Origin: Reclinomonas americana ATCC 50394
Taxonomy: Eukaryota
Assembly: GCA_048213135.1 (NCBI GenBank)
Contig: PS015022.1
Span: 128,638-192,637 of the forward strand
DNA: 64,000 nt
Reading direction: 5' to 3'
This document shows, one piece after another, positions 2,619-47,694 of this stretch. Position 1 is the first letter of the stretch, and every line of letters starts with the position of its first letter. A model generated the notes under the pieces. That model made no database searches. It saw nothing but the letters and a program-made list of their open reading frames with translations, and was not told where the DNA came from. A program made the position numbers and the translations under genes.

Positions 2619-3999
2619 TCGCGCTCCCGCACTGTTGCCAATCCCCCGTCCGTGTTTCGTTTTGGCCCCACCTCCTTTCTTTCTTTCTCTCCCTTTCTCT
2701 CGTTCTCCGATTCCGACGGGCGTCCGCATGCAATGCACACACAGAATGAAAAAAGAAAACAAACGTCAACGAGAACGTCGCAAGCGCTTTGATTAATTGG
2801 CAGAGCGCCAATTTTCTTCGTCCACGCATTTGGTCAGTGCCTCGCGCACACGCACACCCACGCACAACGTCCTTCGCTGGTGAAGTGACAACAGAGCAGC
2901 GCAGTGCAGGAGGTGGCGTGAGGAGGAGGAAGACGAAGACGGAAGAGGAGAAAGACAGGAGGTGAGCTCTCCGCACAAACTTTTATCGTCATCACTGAGA
3001 GAGAGAGAGGAGGGGAAGAGGAGGAGCGAGTGGCTGGCGAAACAATGCACACACACACACACACACAAGTGCGCACAGAGAGAGAGGAAGAGAGGAGTGA
3101 GAGTGTTCGTCGCAGACAAGCGGAAAGTTTTCAAACTCTTGTTTTGTGGATGTGACCACAGAGAGTGTGTGCATGTACACTTGAGACACAGTGAAGAGAG
3201 GCATAGTGCGTGAGAGAAGAGAGAGGGGAGAGGGAGGAGAGAGGCGCTTGCGTGCATGCGTGTCCGCGTGTCTGTGTGTGCACGCGCATCAGGGAGAATA
3301 TGAAGTTCGTGTTCGTGCATTGTAGCGCGCGTAGGGGGAGGAATGCGAGGCACACACACACACATACGCACGCACACAGGTGTCTCTTTCTCTATCTCCT
3401 CCCCGCCTCTCTCTGTGCGTGAGTGCATCTCTCATGGTGGGGGCGCCAAAGTTTCATCATGGCCAGAAACTCTGGTACAGTGTGTTTCATTGATGCGTTT
3501 CTTTTGTTTCTCTCTCTTTCTCTCCACGGCGAGGAGAAGACGCACGCAGAGAGGGAGAGAGAACAGGAGCGAGTTCGTGGCCGCATGCATGCACCGTCGT
3601 TTTTTCCTTTTTTTCAGCTGTGCGCGAAAAGGCACTTGCATGTTCTCGCAGATTCCCGTTGTGCACGCACGTTGTGTCAACGTATGCCACTCTGATGGCA
3701 AGTGTCAGAGAGCGCGACAGTGAGAGAGAGAAAGAGAGAAAGAACGCAGAGTTTTCCTGTATGTGCTAAACAACGGCCGCAATTTTCCTCACTGGGAAAC
3801 TCCATTCATCACACTCACTCACAGACACAAAGAGCGCCTTCTTTCTCTCACACACACTCAGTCTTTACTCTCCGCGCGAACACTGCAGGGAGAGCAGCAA
3901 AAAGGGAGAGTTGTGAGACACACAAAAACAGAGGGAGAGTCGCGCGCTCGTTTTTTTCTTTCTGTTTGTTTGTGTGTGTGTGTGTGTGTGTCAAACAAA

Positions 4000-6900
4000 A
4001 TGACAGAGTCACATGTGAGTGACTGGTGGGTGCGTGACGCAGCAACAGACCAAATGGGTCTTCAACCAGTGGATGTCGTGTGGATTGCGGTGTCGGGCAT
4101 TGGAGTGTTCCTCATGCAGGCGAGTCTCCACACACACACTCTCCCTCCTCTCTCTCTCTCCACACACACTGTGTGTGCTCACTCACTTTCTCTCAAACAT
4201 CAATGCACAGGCGGGCTTCTTGCTCATTGAGGCTGGTGAGTGTGTCAATCTCATTCAATGTGTTCCATTCTGCTCACTCACTCACTCTGTGTGTGTGCGC
4301 GCGCGCCAAAGGCTCTGTGCGCTTTGGTGTGGCCAGCATCACACTAAAGAACTTTATGGATGTTGCGCGCAACGCTCTTTTTTTTCGTCTACTTTTCATG
4401 CCATTCTCCTCACCGAGTCGTCGTAGTTTTGTGTGGCGACATTGATCTGGTGGGCATTCGGCTTCTCCTTGTCATATGGGCACGAGAGTGGCACGGGCGT
4501 GATTGGATGGGACTCGGGCTTGTGCTTTCGCGTGGCCGATGATAAGCTCATGTATTGGTTCTTTGGACTGGTGTTTTGTTGCGTACACACGCGCACATGT
4601 ACAACGAAGCTCGACGGGTGTACTTATATGCGCGAGTTGTGCAGGCGGAGCGGCCACAACGATTCCGTCAGGTAAAATGCAAGTTATGCATGTGTCCGCT
4701 TTGTGTGCTCACGTTTGGTTGGCCACAGGTGCCATGGCGGAGAGGACCATCTTCTTTGTGTATATCATCTACGTGGTGTTTGTCAGCGGTGTTGTGTATC
4801 CGGTCGTGGCGTACTGGGAGTGGGGGCAAACTGGTGAGTGAGAACAGTCTCCGTTTTTTGATGTGGTGACTCACTGCGTGCGTTTTGCAGGTTGGCTCAG
4901 CCGCTCCAACCTCAGGCGACCTATTCCGGGCGGCATCATTGACCTTGCGGGTGAGTCGTCGGCGTGTTGTTTCGTTTGATGGTGCGTGTTGCTGACGTCG
5001 CGCGCAGGCGACGGACCGGTGCACATTGTCGGTGGCATGTGTGGCATTGTCGGTGCGTACCTGGTGGGACCACGTCGTGGTGTTTTCGAGCCGGCCTCTG
5101 CGTCAGGCAGCAGCACAGCGCGCCAGCTCTCCTGTGCGTTGTTATATTCGAGGAGTATGTGAGTTGTTTGTGTGCTGATGGCACCGTGCAGACATGCTGG
5201 GCAAGACGAAGCGCGGACCCGAGAGCAAGCTGCTCACTCACAAACGGCTGGCGGCCATGCACGAGTCGATGAACGATGGCTCTGGCGACATTTACTTTGC
5301 ACGCACACAGTTGGTGTTCCAGGGACTCGGCACACTGATCTTGTGGTTCAGGTACTCTCATTCACTCCCCCTCCCATTCCCTCTCCCCGCTATGTGACTA
5401 ACAGCTTGTGCGTGCGTGCGTTACTTTCGCTCTGCTGTGCAGCTGGTTCTTTTTCAGTTTCGTATCGCATATGCGCAGTCACTTTTGTCCCCCGCTGCAG
5501 TACTCACCCACTGCCCTTTTGCGCCGCATCAATAGATGCCGGTTCCACATTGCGTGTGGTAAGTACAGCAACCTGTTAGCCCTCCCATGCATCTCCATTC
5601 TCACTTGCGCATGCACAGGACGCCCGAGCACCCGGCATTGTGATTGGCACGATCATCATGAACACGGCACTGTCGCCCGCGGCTGCCGGATTTGTCGGCG
5701 CCGTTATTTGCCGTCTGCAGACAGGTCGGTACCACCACGGCGAAATTTTCAACTCTTCGCTGTCGGGACTCGTGGCAATCACCAGCGGATGCGCAACGAT
5801 GAACGGCTGGGGAGCGGTAGCCACCGGCACCATTTCCAGTCTGGTGTACATTGCCGCGGTCAACTGCATTCTGAAACTGCGAATCGATGATCCGGTACGT
5901 ACGGCGAGCATTAAAGTGTGTGCCCTCCTCACACGTCGACTCACTTTTTTTCGTTCCCGTTGTAGATTCGCGCGTTTGCCGTCCACGCAGCCAATGGCGT
6001 GTGGGGCCTGATTGCCAGTGGCCTCTTTTCCGACCGAGGCTTGCTCATTCAAGGTGCGTACGCGCGCTTGTGTGCGTGTGGGTGGGTGCATTCTGTTGCA
6101 TTCGCCGACCCCACTGCCACAGCATACCCTGGTGTCACTCCCATCGCGTTCGGCACCCAGCTCGGCATCCAAGTCCTCGGTGCGCTGGCGGTGGTGTGTT
6201 GGTCCGGAGGTGCCAGTTTCCTATTTCTGTGGACGCTCCGGTACTTTTTGCCGGGACGCACGCTGGCCGATGTGTTTGTGGAGAGTGGCCACTCGTTGGA
6301 GGGCGTTGGTGCGTGACGACCCCTTATCTTTGGTGTTGCCGCCAGCAAGTAAGGACATGCTAAGCATCTCTGTATGTGCTGCAGAGCGCATCGATCCGCC
6401 ACCAGCCGGCTCGTCCATGGCTGTCGTGTTCACTGACGTTGAGGGCGCCAAGACTCTGTGGGCGGCCGATGCGTTTACCATGCGGCAAGCAAGTGACATG
6501 TACGATGAGGTGATGCCGCGCCATCTTCTTCTGTAAGTCCTTGATCTTGTGCCACCGCTCACTGATTTTTCCTGCCAGCTCTTCCAAGAACTCGTCCGCA
6601 TGCATCGTGGCTACGAAGTCAAATCAGAAGGTACGTGATTTTTTGTTTAAGCTCTGCAATCAATCCCGTAGGGTCTCACTCATGGACCTCATGTGCGTGT
6701 GCAGGCAATGCCTCGCTGGTGGTGTTCCAGTCGTGTGACAACGCCGTCAAGTGGGCTCTTGCACTACAATCGGAGCTGCTGCACATTCCGTGGCCACGGT
6801 ACATGGATATCTCCATTCCGTCCTCCTGCATTGTCTTTTCTGACGCAGCAACGTAACAGAGACTTGCTCCGCGGTCGACACACGGATCTCGTCGAGGACG

Positions 6901-7980
6901 AAGGCGGTATTATCATTGCCGGTCTGCGTGCACGCTCCGCCATTCACTACGGCATGGTGCCCGGGAAGGTGGACATGCGAACCGGTCGCATGGTCTGTCA
7001 CTCTCACCTGCTTGAGCGTCATCGTCCGCGTTTCTGACTCGGTTCTACCTCTCGCAGGACTACTTTGGCGAGATTGTGAACGAGTGTGCCAAACTGTGTG
7101 GCGCCACTCGCGGCGGCGAGATTTCGGTGACGGCCGAAGCAGTGGAATTCATCGGACATCCTGCCGGCGACCTATCGAAGCTGATGGTCAACGTGCCGCA
7201 CGTGTTGATCGAACTGGGGCCTGTGCAGTTGGATCTCGCGGTACGTTTGCGTTGCACACAAAATCGCACCCGCATAGTCCCTCATGCTCTGTTTTTTTCC
7301 CTGTATCGCAGGAGGAGCTTGATCCGCTGTTGGTATTCCAGATCTACCCGGAGGATTTGGCGAGTCGGCGCGAGCTACTGGGTCACAGTGGTGAGCATGT
7401 GGGTTCCACAGCCGACGACATGCCAACACACTCGCGGCTCGGCGACGGTCGGGCGCGATCCGCGTACACCATTGCCAGCTCGCGATCCGCACCGCTGCCG
7501 TCTGCCCGCTCCATCAACGACGTGCTGTCGACGACGTCGCCTGGTCGGTATGCCGCCGTGCCGGTGGCTCCCGCGGGGACGCAGTCGGTGTTCCGTCAAA
7601 TGTCGCGAAGGAGAACGAGCGCGCGACAAGTATTCCTGCAGGCACCGCCGGGGCCGGCGGCGGCATACGGCCTCAGCATGCACGAGTTGCGAAGCCGATC
7701 GGCTCGGTCAAGTCCGAGTGCGACCGCGCACAACGTACCCAACTCGTCAGCATCGGCTCGCGAAGCACACGCACCGGGCGATGTGATTGCAGTTCCGCGG
7801 TTACCATGGGCACCGCACCCTCTGCAAGTCAGACCACCTTCTGCCACTGGCCCACCGAGCCCGTCGACTCAGGGAGTCGCCGGCGAGGTACGAAGTCCGG
7901 CACACTCGGAGGCCGACGAGGAGCACCCATTCGAGGTACCCGACTCGCTCGCCAGACACGGTGCTGACCAAGAAGAATAA
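4000..7980 (+). CDS. Ammonium transporter (Amt/Mep) fused to a C-terminal class III adenylate-cyclase-like domain and a low-complexity tail
   Basis: Amt motifs: VFLMQ|AGFLLIEAG, KNFMD, FGLVFCGAATTIPSGAMAER, YPVVAYWEWG, IIDLAG-DGPVHIVGG, LGTLILWFSWFFFNAGST, LSGLVAITSGC, LRIDDP-IRAFAVHAANGVWG. Phase-1 intron 6309-6384 joins it in frame to VVFTDVEGAKTLW...GYEVKSEGNASLVVF...GLRARSAIHYG...RMDYFGEIVNECAKL. Stop at 7978-7980. Confidence 0.88.
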
Positions 7981-13529: not shown

Positions 13530-17705
<4,176 letters not shown>

Positions 17706-31687: not shown

Positions 31688-31754
31688 ATGAGGCAATACA
31701 AGGCGGAGTGCACTCCGATGGTGTCTACAACTTCTTACATTCTTTCTTGTCGCT

Positions 31755-34052
31755 ATGAGCCAAAGTATGCAGCACCAGTCCATCTGCATATATGTGTGTG
31801 TGCACAGAAAGCTCACTGCCTGTGTCTTCAATACAGCTGCGAGTCCATTCCATCGAGGCGAGCGCGAGATCCAGGAACGCTGTGGTGTGCGTGATCGGAT
31901 CGAGCGCATGGGCCGGCGCTTCATTCAGCGCTTCATGCCCGACGAGCATCGCGAGTTCTACGAGCAGATGCCGTTTCTGGTGGTGAGCAGTGTGGACGCG
32001 GAGAGCGGACAGCCGTGGGCCTCGATTGTGACGGGTCGGCCGCCGGATTTCGTGCGATCACCCGACCCGACCACGCTGGTGATCACCACTCCGCATCCGG
32101 CCGAGGGCGATCCGCTGCGTGAGAACCTGCGTGTGGGTGCGCCACTCGGCATCCTCGGCATCGAGCTGGCCACGCGCCGTCGCAACCGCATCAATGGTCG
32201 CGTGACGGCGCTGGAGGAAATCGGTGTGTTCGCATTGCCGGCGCGGGCGCGCAAGGAGCAAGACAAGCGACCGCGTCTGCGCATCACCGTGCAAGTGGAA
32301 CAGGCGTTCGGCAACTGCCCGCAGTACATCCAGGGCCGCGACTGGCAGTTCATCGACGACGGGCAACCGGCCGACGAGCAACTGTACCACCACGACCCGC
32401 CGCTGGTGGCTGCCTCACTGAATGCGCGCGATCGCGAGCTGCTGGCGGCGTGCGACACGTTCTTCATCGGCAGCGTGTGTGCCGACGACGCAGAGGCGGT
32501 GCCGTCGGCGCGCGGTGCCGATGCCGCCCACCGCGGCGGCAAGCCGGGCTTTGTGCACGTGGACGAGTCGGGCACGGTGATCACCACGCCGGATTTCGTC
32601 GGCAACTTCATGTTCAACACTCTCGGCAACCTGCTGTTGGAGAAGCGTGCCGGCCTGCTCTTCCTCGACTTTGAGCGGGGCGACGTGCTCTTCGTGGCCG
32701 CCACGTCGGAGATCATTTGGGATTCGCCCGAGGTGAAGGCGTTTGTCGGCGCACAGCGCCTCGTGCGCTTCCACGTGACCGAGGTGCGACGAGTGGACCG
32801 CGCCCTCGACCTGGTGTGGCCGACAGCGCCCGACTTCTCGCCCGTCCTCGCCGAGACCGGCACGTGGGAGGATGCGGAACGTGCGCTGCATGCGGAGCGC
32901 ATGCGTACCACCTGGCGCCCCTTCACCGTGGTCGACGTGCAGCACGAGTCGTCCACGGTGCGCTCGTTCTATCTGCAGCCGGCCGACGCGGACGCGGCGC
33001 AGCTGGGTGTGGCACCGTTTGAGGCTGGTCAGTACCTGCCCATCCGCGTGCCAGTGTCGCTGCCCGACACGCCGTTCTTTGTGCGCACGTACACGCTGTC
33101 GGACGCGCCGAATGGTCGCACCTACCGCATCAGTGTGCGCCGTGACGGCGTCGCCTCGCAGTGGCTGCACGATTCGTGCGCGATTGGCACTACGCTGGAC
33201 GTGTTGGCGCCGCGTGGCGACTTTGTGGTGTCGCCGTCGACGGCCACTCGCCCACTGGTGCTGGTGTCGGCCGGCATTGGCATCACACCGATGGTTGCCA
33301 TTCTCAACAGCCTCCTGGTCAACGAGGGTCGCTCGCGTCACCACAGTGCCATCATCTTCATTCACGGGGCGCGCAACAGCGACGAGCAGGCCTTTGCGGA
33401 GCTGCTGCGCGACAAGGCGGCCTTCAACAGTAATCTGCTGCTTTTCACCTCCTTTAGCCAGCCGCTTGCCGGTCGCGACGTGCTCGGCCGCACGCACAAC
33501 GCCGTCGGCCACGTGACCATTGACACGGTCACCTTCGTGCTGTCGCGTCTCGGCCTCAAGGGCGCGGCGACCGCCGACGCCGAGTACTTTGTGTGTGGAC
33601 CGATGGCATTCATGGCGTCGCTGGTCGACGGCCTCCGCCAGCAACTCGCCGTGCCCGACGAGCGCATTCACCACGAGGCTTTCCACTTCACCGACGTGCC
33701 ACCGCAACTCAAGCAGCGCCACAAGAAGCCGCGATCGGCGCCGGCCTTGCCAGACATTGAGGAGGCGCCGGTCATCTTCCGCCGCTCCAACAAGCAGGCC
33801 GTCTGGCGTGCCGCCGCCACTGGCGCCGCGGAGGGCGACGAGAGCAGCAGCAACTCGCTGCTGGACTTGGCCGAGGCTAACGGCCTCCAGCCGGCGTACA
33901 GTTGTCGCACTGGTCTGTGCGGCACATGTGCTGTGCGTCTGCTGTGCGGCTCTGTGCACTATGGAGCCGACCCGCCGCTGGCACAACCGGCCGACGGCGA
34001 AGTGCTCATTTGCTGTGCACAGCCGGCTGAGCCGGTGGAGCTTGACTTGTAA
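31755..34052 (+). CDS. Pyridoxamine-5'-phosphate-oxidase-like FMN-binding domains + FNR-type FAD/NAD reductase + C-terminal 2Fe-2S ferredoxin
   Basis: SPFHRGEREIQ, TRRRNRING, FGNCPQYIQ, AHRGGKPGFV, GNFMFNTLGNL; RTYTLS, GVASQWLH, SAGIGITP, VCGPMAFM; CRTGLCGTC...LICC. There is a single likely 72-nt intron at 31765-31836. Confidence 0.9.
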   Translation: MSQSMQHQSICIYVCVHRKLTACVFNTAASPFHRGEREIQERCGVRDRIERMGRRFIQRFMPDEHREFYEQMPFLVVSSVDAESGQPWASIVTGRPPDFVRSPDPTTLVITTPHPAEGDPLRENLRVGAPLGILGIELATRRRNRINGRVTALEEIGVFALPARARKEQDKRPRLRITVQVEQAFGNCPQYIQGRDWQFIDDGQPADEQLYHHDPPLVAASLNARDRELLAACDTFFIGSVCADDAEAVPSARGADAAHRGGKPGFVHVDESGTVITTPDFVGNFMFNTLGNLLLEKRAGLLFLDFERGDVLFVAATSEIIWDSPEVKAFVGAQRLVRFHVTEVRRVDRALDLVWPTAPDFSPVLAETGTWEDAERALHAERMRTTWRPFTVVDVQHESSTVRSFYLQPADADAAQLGVAPFEAGQYLPIRVPVSLPDTPFFVRTYTLSDAPNGRTYRISVRRDGVASQWLHDSCAIGTTLDVLAPRGDFVVSPSTATRPLVLVSAGIGITPMVAILNSLLVNEGRSRHHSAIIFIHGARNSDEQAFAELLRDKAAFNSNLLLFTSFSQPLAGRDVLGRTHNAVGHVTIDTVTFVLSRLGLKGAATADAEYFVCGPMAFMASLVDGLRQQLAVPDERIHHEAFHFTDVPPQLKQRHKKPRSAPALPDIEEAPVIFRRSNKQAVWRAAATGAAEGDESSSNSLLDLAEANGLQPAYSCRTGLCGTCAVRLLCGSVHYGADPPLAQPADGEVLICCAQPAEPVELDL

Positions 34053-46311: not shown

Positions 46312-47166
46312 TCACTCTGGCGCCGTATGGTGCATGACCGCTTCATAAACCTACCATCAACACAGAAGCAGTGGTGCGCGTGCGCGAGTCAGCAACCCCC
46401 TCTCATTCATCATCATGACATCACGCTTGCCCGCCAGACGCAACGAGTAGTGTGACAGCATTGACGGGGAACGAGCGAATAAGGGTGACCAGCAGGCCGC
46501 GGAAGAAGACAGCCACGCCCTCCGTTCTGTACATCTGTCGGGCGCAGTCCAAAATCCCATGATACTGCGCGCATCGGTACACAATGTGAATCGTCGCCAC
46601 CTCCTCCTATACCTAAACACAGTACGCGACGCAACTTGCATGTGATTGTGGCTCTGCGTTTGAATTCTCGACTTGATGACATCGGTGGGGAACGAGACTA
46701 GCCAGTAGGCCGTCCCGGCAGCTCCGCCAGCCATTAGCAAGGAAAACACATCCAGCGTCTCTTGCTCATCCACGTCCTCGCCAATCATGACAAGTTTTGT
46801 CAGGCGGTATCTGCGCTCACTTTTCACACACACGACAACAACAACAACAACATGGTGCACGCTACCACTCCCTCGCCACTCACGTTCCAAAGTATGCTGC
46901 GCCGCACACACACACACACGCAAAGGTGAGGACGGAAAAGAGTAAGTAAATGGAGCGATGGAGTGGCGCACCTGCATTGCCCGGTATCTCACGCAGAAGC
47001 GTGGCGCCAAAACCCTGCATTGCACTCGCGTGAGCAGAATACCCCTGCTTGCATATTGTCGACATGCAGAGGCAGACCGTCATGAGACCGCGCATGCCTT
47101 CCGTTTTCACTGCACATTCGCCGCAGAGTCAGTATCATTGCATGCAGCTGAAGTGAGAACGGAGTG

Positions 47167-47233
<67 letters not shown>

Positions 47234-47694
47234 NNNNNNNNNNNNNNNNNNNNNNNNNNNNNNNNNNNNNNNNNNNNNNNNNNNNNNNNNNNNNNNNNNN
47301 NNNNNNNNNNNNNNNNNNNNNNNNNNNNNNNNNNNNNNNNNNNNNNNNNNNNNNNNNNNNNNNNNNNNNNNNNNNNNNNNNNNNNNNNNNNNNNNNNNNN
47401 NNNNNNNNNNNNNNNNNNNNNNNNNNNNNNNNNNNNNNNNNNNNNNNNNNNNNNNNNNNNNNNNNNNNNNNNNNNNNNNNNNNNNNNNNNNNNNNNNNNN
47501 NNNNNNNNNNNNNNNNNNNNNNNNNNNNNNNNNNNNNNNNNNNNNNNNNNNNNNNNNNNNNNNNNNNNNNNNNNNNNNNNNNNNNCGACGAGTACTGTCC
47601 GAACGGTAGGTGTAGGACGACTAGTCTTCGTCGTATACTCGTCTCGTCCGTAACCGTACTACGCCCTTCGGTACGTACGACGTAGTAGAGACGA

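Follow-up and report, generated by a model that had tools for sequence, protein, structure and literature searches.

Can ammonium sensing and the production of a second messenger reside in a single eukaryotic protein, and is such a protein encoded in the DNA analysed here? Eukaryotic ammonium sensing is still an open field, represented by yeast Mep2 signalling and by algal ammonium chemotaxis or ammonium repression. Mep2, a eukaryotic member of the ammonium transporter (Amt) family, has been proposed to signal ammonium towards the cyclic AMP (cAMP)/protein kinase A pathway, and it has no fused output domain. The question was raised by positions 4000 to 7980 of a 64,000-nucleotide (nt) stretch of Reclinomonas americana ATCC 50394 (contig PS015022.1, 128,638 to 192,637, forward strand; called the window below, to which all positions refer), for which an initial annotation had suggested a one-component ammonium-to-cAMP sensor. 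At the sequence level, our results confirmed a real, intron-rich eukaryotic gene in which an Amt module is followed by a class III cyclase-homology domain (CHD), an uncharacterised variant of the ammonium-receptor design. The name of one-component sensor is plausible for this architecture as a class and was weakened for the present copy by its altered active site. The protein of the window may instead be an ammonium receptor or transceptor in which the cyclase-like domain has a regulatory role or depends on a partner, a reading to which we assign an even chance.

At least two further eukaryotes carry the Amt-CHD architecture, likewise in uncharacterised proteins. One is a gene model of Mesostigma viride (P0117; Mv10781-RA.1, EukProt/JGI) displaying Ammonium_transp and a truncated Guanylate_cyc domain, the other a transcript of the diplonemid Artemidia motanka (P0026; EukProt TRINITY_DN35603) displaying two Ammonium_transp domains and Guanylate_cyc, its PF00211 match (1.6e-29). 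Among 167 collected proteins these were the two matched by the spliced C-terminal region of our model (3.2e-25 for P0026, in the stretch corresponding to its Guanylate_cyc domain, and 1.3e-16 for P0117; the next E-value was 0.27). Whole-protein statistics, here and below, were computed against the proteins collected for this analysis.

The model comprised 20 exons and 19 introns on the + strand, from an ATG at 4000 to a TAA at 7978-7980, and formed a single open frame without internal stop. Its coding length was 2688 nt, i.e. 895 residues (888 with the alternative donor of exon 8), and its introns, 18 of the GT-AG and one of the GC-AG class, measured 58-91 nt, or 37 nt for one of two placements of intron 8. 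Splice sites were placed by coordinates in the three + frames of 4000-7980 under the guidance of homology, and therefore an unspliced six-frame scan of the window was also made. The two domain assignments of the initial annotation held in the profile searches, where Amt and CHD profiles both matched, colinearly, within the window; the six-frame scan revealed no second Amt or CHD copy in these 64 kb.

As judged from profile matches, the Amt module is a member of PF00909 over the whole domain. Four of the five Amt exon pieces matched this family singly at E<1e-3 (5.8e-17 for exon 12 and 9.6e-7 for exon 6), a profile of 39 homologous Amt domains gave colinear matches over 4069-6241 (profile positions 1-384) and the Amt part scored 198-349 bits against homologues. 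Pore residues were read through two successive alignments, of the model with P0117 and of P0117 with Sd-Amt1 from Shewanella denitrificans (PDB 8qj3). Residue roles in the Sd-Amt1 pore and in its N1/N2 sites were taken from Pflüger et al. 2024 (PMC11152129; statements on this and the other cited papers refer to the portions of their texts that were covered). The Phe gate F115/F286 (F98/F221 in Sd-Amt1), the outer W156/S290 (W139/S225), the twin His H185/H393 (H169/H323) and D177 were all kept. Likewise, the aligned sequence was identical to Sd-Amt1 at 11 of 11 binding-site and switch positions of the N1/N2 signature (see the table). The closest solved structures to P0117 were those of Sd-Amt1 (8qj3, 233 bits) and Ks-Amt5 (6eu6, 217 bits), whereas assimilatory Amts reached at most 169 bits. 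On these residues and scores, membership of the Amt module in the sensor-type N1/N2 signature class is supported.

The end of the Amt module differed somewhat from the initial description, according to which the usual C-terminal motif was replaced by a short linker. The motif proved degenerate, a remnant (R..DV.VESGHS) being left that aligned with R..GVDYVKHGGSAY of the Mesostigma protein. The CHD begins about 25 residues further on, and neither a HAMP domain nor a coiled-coil spacer was found between Amt and CHD. A second peculiarity is a basic insertion of about 50-60 residues in cytoplasmic loop 5 that had no counterpart in P0117, P0026 or Sd-Amt1; it could be a regulatory loop or conceal an unrecognised intron.

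The cyclase part was assigned by a profile of 109 PF00211 proteins, drawn from 120 such proteins gathered with the P0026 cyclase region as query, P0026 itself being excluded. The spliced CHD scored 133.2 bits against this profile (E 4.5e-43) and covered positions 9-203 of 214, so that its sequence is a PF00211 class III catalytic-domain match over its length. In the unspliced scan, which comprised 1826 six-frame pieces of open reading frame, the same profile matched five + strand pieces that were colinear both in the genome and in the profile. Taken singly, none of the five cyclase exons gave a significant match to Pfam PF00211. The motifs FTD..G...LW, GYEVK.EG and DYFG..VN, quoted for the cyclase in the initial annotation, were present in the spliced frame.

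Catalytic positions were scored by aligning the model to 110 reference CHDs, and residue roles were taken from Rv1625c (PMC4174876) and, for the Arg of NxxxR, also from PMC12264004. In class III cyclases one monomer provides the two metal-binding Asp and the other the K/D/N/R residues (PMC4174876). The specificity pair was of the adenylate type (K534/D613, Rv1625c K296 and D365), and the spacings from K to D/N (4), from D to N (7) and from N to R/K (4) were those of Rv1625c K296/D300/D365/N372/R376. The pair of metal-binding Asp (Rv1625c D256 and D300) was incomplete, Asn538 occupying the second position, and the transition-state NxxxR motif was broken by Lys624. Four further substitutions fell on positions invariant in 110 of 110 references, namely A499 (S), S540 (F), A595 (G) and L672 (G). 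N538 is encoded by the first complete codon of exon 17, in an ungapped part of the profile alignment, and no alternative splice would turn it into Asp. Given Asn538, Lys624 and four more substitutions where the references do not vary, this CHD is, as a homodimer, probably a poor or dead cyclase that would not be self-sufficient.

This bears directly on the claim that the protein couples ammonium binding to cyclic-nucleotide signalling. The adenylate-type Amt-CHD design and the N1/N2 signature spoke in its favour; N538, K624 and the four other changes spoke against it. The claim assumes a competent cyclase, and a direct coupling of ammonium to cAMP is only partly supported for this copy. In its strongest form it pictures a self-sufficient ammonium-regulated adenylate cyclase, in which CHDs of neighbouring subunits dimerise upon ammonium binding and make cAMP. 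Such a design would parallel Sd-Amt1 and Ks-Amt5, in which the activity of an attached output enzyme responds to ammonium (PMC11152129, PMC5764959), and D495, K534, R593, D613 and N620 are retained. Moreover, Artemidia P0026 displays all six canonical residues, so that Amt-coupled active cyclases probably exist. Yet Asp occurs in 110 of 110 references where the window has N538 and Arg in 109 of 110 where it has K624, four more invariant positions are altered, and both active sites of a homodimer would bear both defects. We therefore regard a self-sufficient enzyme as rather unlikely for this copy.

Whether the two domains belong to one gene depends on the Amt/cyclase junction. The initial annotation had joined them in frame through an ordinary intron, and its boundaries proved exact, with 6308 as the last position of exon 14 and the intron dividing codon 478 (GAG) as G|AG. 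Scored with a matrix from which each intron in turn was left out, i.e. against the other introns of the gene, the donor reached 7.9 bits, which places it in the upper range of the 19 introns, and the acceptor 5.2 bits, in their middle range. Within 4000-7980, sites scoring at least as high numbered 16 of 324 GT and 28 of 170 AG. A conserved P-x-G stretch preceding strand beta1 is encoded upstream of M489, where the cyclase part has its first Met, and aligns with the homologues. P0117 gave one uninterrupted alignment with the spliced model (163 bits, E 5.9e-50), running from the second Amt half across the linker and on into the CHD.

A pair of adjacent genes or isoforms, i.e. an Amt protein and, from M489 (ATG 6417) onwards, a separate soluble CHD protein, would also have some points in its favour. 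If the junction intron is retained, the Amt frame closes after two extra codons at TGA 6314-6316, the ATG directly precedes strand beta1 and the junction is known here from DNA alone; an Amt-only isoform arising by intron retention is possible. However, the gap between stop and start would be only about 100 nt on the same strand, as against several hundred nt on either side of the Amt-CHD gene, the junction donor and acceptor match the quality of the other introns, homologues align with the coding-like P-x-G stretch that precedes M489 and contiguous Amt-CHD proteins are known in Mesostigma and Artemidia. Separate products thus appear improbable. The continuous frame, the typical 76-nt intron, the upstream P-x-G stretch, the P0117 alignment and the P0026 transcript favour a single predicted gene, and the in-frame canonical intron together with two homologous fused proteins supports a putative transducer fused C-terminally within the same polypeptide. 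A functionless fusion whose CHD has been drifting since a recent joining is likewise very unlikely, for although six changes at positions invariant or nearly so in the 110 reference CHDs and a long end branch in the Amt tree (1.28) would suit it, the 20 exons lack any stop or frameshift, 19 of 19 splice junctions are usable, the fold-level CHD score is high (133 bits) and every Amt pore or signature residue that was tested is kept.

The reading that we prefer, an ammonium receptor or transceptor with a regulatory or partner-dependent cyclase-like domain, would operate as follows. One gene would yield a membrane protein composed of an 11-helix Amt module, a cytosolic class III CHD and a low-complexity tail of about 200 residues. 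The Amt module would combine an intact ammonium-selective pore with the full N1/N2 'ammonium receptor' signature. Ammonium entering the pore or filling the N1/N2 pocket may shift the cytoplasmic face of the Amt trimer and its C-terminal linker, and this shift could in turn alter the pairing of the attached CHDs. The CHD itself would most likely be a non-catalytic or nucleotide-binding module with regulatory and dimerising roles, or would act only in partnership with another CHD protein that complements it. Of this scheme we observed the exon-intron structure, the nature of the domains, the states of their residues and the two further eukaryotic cases, and we infer the spliced transcript, the ammonium binding, the conformational coupling and the loss of catalysis.

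Several points weigh against this scheme. Every splice junction, including 6309-6384, was deduced from DNA through splice signals and homology. Plant AMT1 transporters belong to the same N1/N2 signature cluster (PMC11152129), so the signature is no proof of a receptor role and fits a receptor or a transporting 'transceptor' rather than a receptor alone. The substitutions fall on both halves of the active site, and a simple C1/C2-like heterodimer would leave one defect per site. Asn can ligate metal and Lys is a conservative replacement for Arg, so that residual or Mn-dependent activity is possible. Retention of four of the six canonical residues together with R593 runs contrary to free decay and is compatible with a working enzyme. 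Finally, the relatives are all distant, identity reaching at best 40-46% in the Amt part and 38% in the CHD, and the Mesostigma model ends inside its CHD, which was compared as a half-domain only.

Known systems resemble the window protein in different respects. Sd-Amt1 (Amt-HAMP-GGDEF; PDB 8qj3, 8qj4, 8qpf; PMC11152129) likewise has an intact pore and the same N1/N2 sites, and a C-terminal nucleotide-cyclising output that must dimerise under a trimeric sensor would be common to both proteins. It is bacterial, however, and its output is a diguanylate cyclase attached by a HAMP/helical linker of about 60 residues, whereas the window gene is eukaryotic with 19 introns, and its class III CHD, with two catalytic residues changed, lies about 25 residues past the vestigial motif. 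Ks-Amt5 of 'Candidatus Kuenenia stuttgartiensis' (PDB 6eu6; PMC5764959) has its transducer attached directly to the Amt sensor and lacks a HAMP domain, a layout that the predicted window protein would share; it differs in being bacterial and in having a histidine kinase as output. Its linker was proposed to touch loop 5 of the neighbouring subunit (PMC5764959), the very loop in which the large insertion of the window protein falls.

Among eukaryotic proteins, Mesostigma P0117 displays the same order of PF00909 and PF00211, and its CHD too follows the C-terminal motif of the Amt module at a short distance. Artemidia P0026 also displays PF00909 followed by PF00211, but differs in that it has two Amt modules in tandem, about 110 residues as linker and a canonical active site. 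Both are only about 30-40% identical to the window protein. The chytrid rhodopsin cyclases RGC1/2 with NeoR provide another eukaryotic case in which a membrane sensor is joined to a class III CHD, with the differences of a rhodopsin sensor, a coiled-coil linker and guanylyl specificity (PMC12264004). Where other CHDs have N..R, that of NeoR shows T..K; by itself NeoR has no activity, and it functions solely as one half of a heterodimer (PMC12264004). Like the window CHD it displays Lys at the Arg position of NxxxR, NeoR acting as partner and regulatory site; unlike it, NeoR keeps the metal Asp residues that are partly absent from the window protein (PMC12264004).

These comparisons leave room for a wider proposal, namely that Amt-CHD proteins form an undescribed eukaryotic class of one-component ammonium receptors with at least two origins, one in the diplonemid and one in the window organism and/or Mesostigma, and that the window copy is a pseudo-cyclase controlling a separate catalytic CHD partner in the manner of NeoR. 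Taken as a whole, this remains tentative, being possible but on the doubtful side.

The evolutionary data bear on the number of origins. The three Amt-CHD proteins were scattered in the Amt tree, requiring 3 changes, a value equally low in 176 of 500 shuffles, and a common origin of all three was not adopted since they did not cluster. The Amt modules of the Artemidia protein grouped with Artemidia Amt-Amt-protein-kinase fusions with a support of 100, so that the fusion in that lineage is independent. A clade of the window and Mesostigma proteins was neither supported nor rejected (p-AU 0.20), and the Amt domain of the window, at the end of its long branch, was at most 40% identical to any collected protein.

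For the CHD, identities were 38% with the best match (P0233, CHD+AAA), 38% with the Mesostigma half-domain and 31% with Artemidia; in the collected set, P0233 and CHASE2-CHD proteins of bacterial-type architecture (37-39%) came ahead of the diplonemid ones. The Artemidia CHD possesses all six canonical residues, while the Mesostigma half-CHD keeps both metal Asp and displays Tyr at the specificity Lys. A specific kinship with GRESAG4-type catalytic domains, in line with the fungal and trypanosome type named in the initial annotation, is possible: the only PDB matches of exon 15 were 1fx4 and 1fx2 of Trypanosoma brucei GRESAG4 (E 0.57 and 0.96), and the P0117 half-CHD matched the same structures at 7e-9 and 1e-7; exon 19 had no match in PDB. 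Diplonema papillatum P0169, a 651-residue 'adenylate cyclase', is composed of two tandem CHDs, the second with Ser at the second metal-Asp position; from its sequence it looks like a C1/C2-like pseudo-heterodimer in a single chain.

HMMER retrieved 798 matches to Amt exon 12 among 1.84 billion representatives, of which the best 150 were inspected. Other eukaryotic Amt fusions among these 150 were Artemidia motanka P0029 and P0123 (Amt-Amt-protein kinase, 1841 and 2056 residues) and Paulinella micropora P0113 (Amt followed by Kelch repeats, 1306 residues); bacterial Amt-HAMP-MCP (P0166) and Amt-histidine kinase proteins (P0151, P0011) were also among the Amt matches listed. A search for shorter proteins related to the Artemidia CHD gave 225 matches, and none of the 120 listed carried PF00909. 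The window protein was not present in a collection of 5.8 billion proteins, where the best identity was 46-51% over part of exon 12, and a metagenome scan with this exon yielded six loci of 32-40% identity that were too distant for use. Single cyclase exons gave no homologue in the protein search and none by tblastn against plasmids, and exon 19 gave none in the metagenome scan. In the ESM Atlas, P0117 had no usable match and part of P0026 had only scores below 0.8.

The initial annotation had known of no characterised eukaryotic example, and our survey of full-text literature agreed with it: no described eukaryotic Amt-cyclase was found, the architecture itself lying uncharacterised in the public Mesostigma viride and Artemidia motanka sets. 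This result pertains to the texts covered, which did not include Fig. 7B and the supplements of PMC11152129, where domain organisations are given by kingdom and fusions of this kind might be listed. The nearest candidates, PMC4620153 and PMC11621555, describe no eukaryotic Amt-cyclase fusion in their covered portions. The covered text of PMC11152129 contains none of the terms 'adenylate cyclase', 'adenylyl cyclase' or 'eukaryot', and that of PMC5764959 contains neither 'cyclase' nor 'eukaryot'.

If a receptor class with a pseudo-cyclase member is real, it would connect ammonium outside the cell to cAMP by a direct molecular path in protists and algae. For eukaryotes, we know of no description of a direct link between an Amt protein and a second-messenger enzyme. 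As the Amt-kinase and Amt-diguanylate-cyclase receptors of bacteria illustrate, the Amt fold can serve in ligand sensing, and eukaryotic Amt-CHD proteins in three distant lineages would extend this principle to eukaryotes and to cAMP. The Artemidia version is probably active, judging from its residues, and those of the window and of Mesostigma have altered active sites. The altered versions may show how a trimeric sensor controls a dimeric enzyme, or how a cyclase domain turns into a regulatory pseudo-enzyme.

Features of the Amt-CHD gene, with window positions and residue correspondences
Feature	Position	Strand	Details
Whole coding region	4000..7980	+	888-895 aa, 20 exons
Amt module	4000..6308	+	exons 1-14, aa 1-477; PF00909, profile matches, alignments
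N1/N2 positions, window = Sd-Amt1			Q40=Q22, F43=F25, E47=E29, K61=K44, N62=N45, D65=D48, F66=F49, T121=T104, S124=S107, Y136=Y119, N339=N269
Loop-5 insertion	5100-5330		aa ~208-267
Amt/cyclase junction intron	6309..6384	+	GTGCGT..CTGCAG, 76 nt
Class III CHD	6405..7368	+	aa 485-692, exons 15-20; profile, colinear matches, P0026 match
Unspliced CHD profile matches	6405-6515, 6579-6632, 6701-6805, 6897-6992, 7055-7153	+	
First metal Asp			D in references; D495, kept
Specificity Lys			K in references; K534, kept
Second metal Asp	6707..6709	+	D in 110/110 references; Asn538 (AAT), changed
Arg of RxGxHxG strand			R in references; R593, kept
Specificity Asp			D in references; D613, kept
Transition-state Asn			N in references; N620, kept
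Transition-state Arg of NxxxR	7091..7093	+	R in 109/110 references; Lys624 (AAA), changed
C-terminal tail	7369..7977	+	~200 aa, low-complexity, Ala/Ser/Pro/Arg-rich
Exons 1-5	4000-4119, 4211-4235, 4312-4361, 4427-4577, 4645-4671	+	
Exons 6-10	4729-4833, 4891-4950, 5008-5154 (or -5133), 5192-5351, 5443-5456	+	
Exons 11-15	5536-5558, 5619-5894, 5966-6053, 6123-6308, 6385-6509	+	
Exons 16-20	6579-6630, 6705-6798, 6860-6992, 7058-7240, 7312-7980	+	
Intron 1	4120..4210	+	GC-AG (GCGAGT..CACAG); interrupts conserved MQ|AGF motif
Intron 8, placement uncertain	5134..5191	+	donor GTGCGT 5134 (58 nt, preferred) or GTATGT 5155 (37 nt)
Exon 10, micro-exon	5443..5456	+	14 nt; encodes part of conserved WFFFN(AGS) pore motif including F286

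Some splice choices were less usual than the others. No in-phase GT donor restored the Amt motif at intron 1, and the frame was kept by either donor of intron 8, which falls within the loop-5 insertion. Three donors began with GTT (introns 4362-4426, 4578-4644 and 5457-5535; GTTGCG twice and GTTTCG once), had low matrix scores and were chosen by continuity of conserved Amt motifs. The GC-AG intron, the GTT donors and the 14-nt micro-exon were all deduced from protein homology only. In the tail, Ala, Ser, Pro and Arg made up 101 of 196 positions from residue 700 onwards, one basic RRxT motif was observed (residue 772), Pfam gave no family match and further introns are possible.

The window as a whole is eukaryotic nuclear DNA with short spliceosomal introns and a G+C content of 55-60% near the Amt-CHD gene. 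Neighbouring open reading frames were those of ordinary eukaryotic genes (PRP39-like HAT repeats, VWA, WD40, PH, FKBP) and did not suggest a functional cluster. Intergenic CA/GA microsatellites were common, e.g. at 3960-3990 upstream of the gene, and runs of N, i.e. assembly gaps, at about 16870-17610 and 47110-47680 were bordered by long CT/GA dinucleotide repeats. Finally, an intronless frame of 786 residues at 31692-34049 (+) combined PNPOx_N, FAD_binding_6, NAD_binding_1 and 2Fe-2S ferredoxin domains, a bacterial-looking oxidoreductase fusion amid an otherwise intron-rich eukaryotic region.

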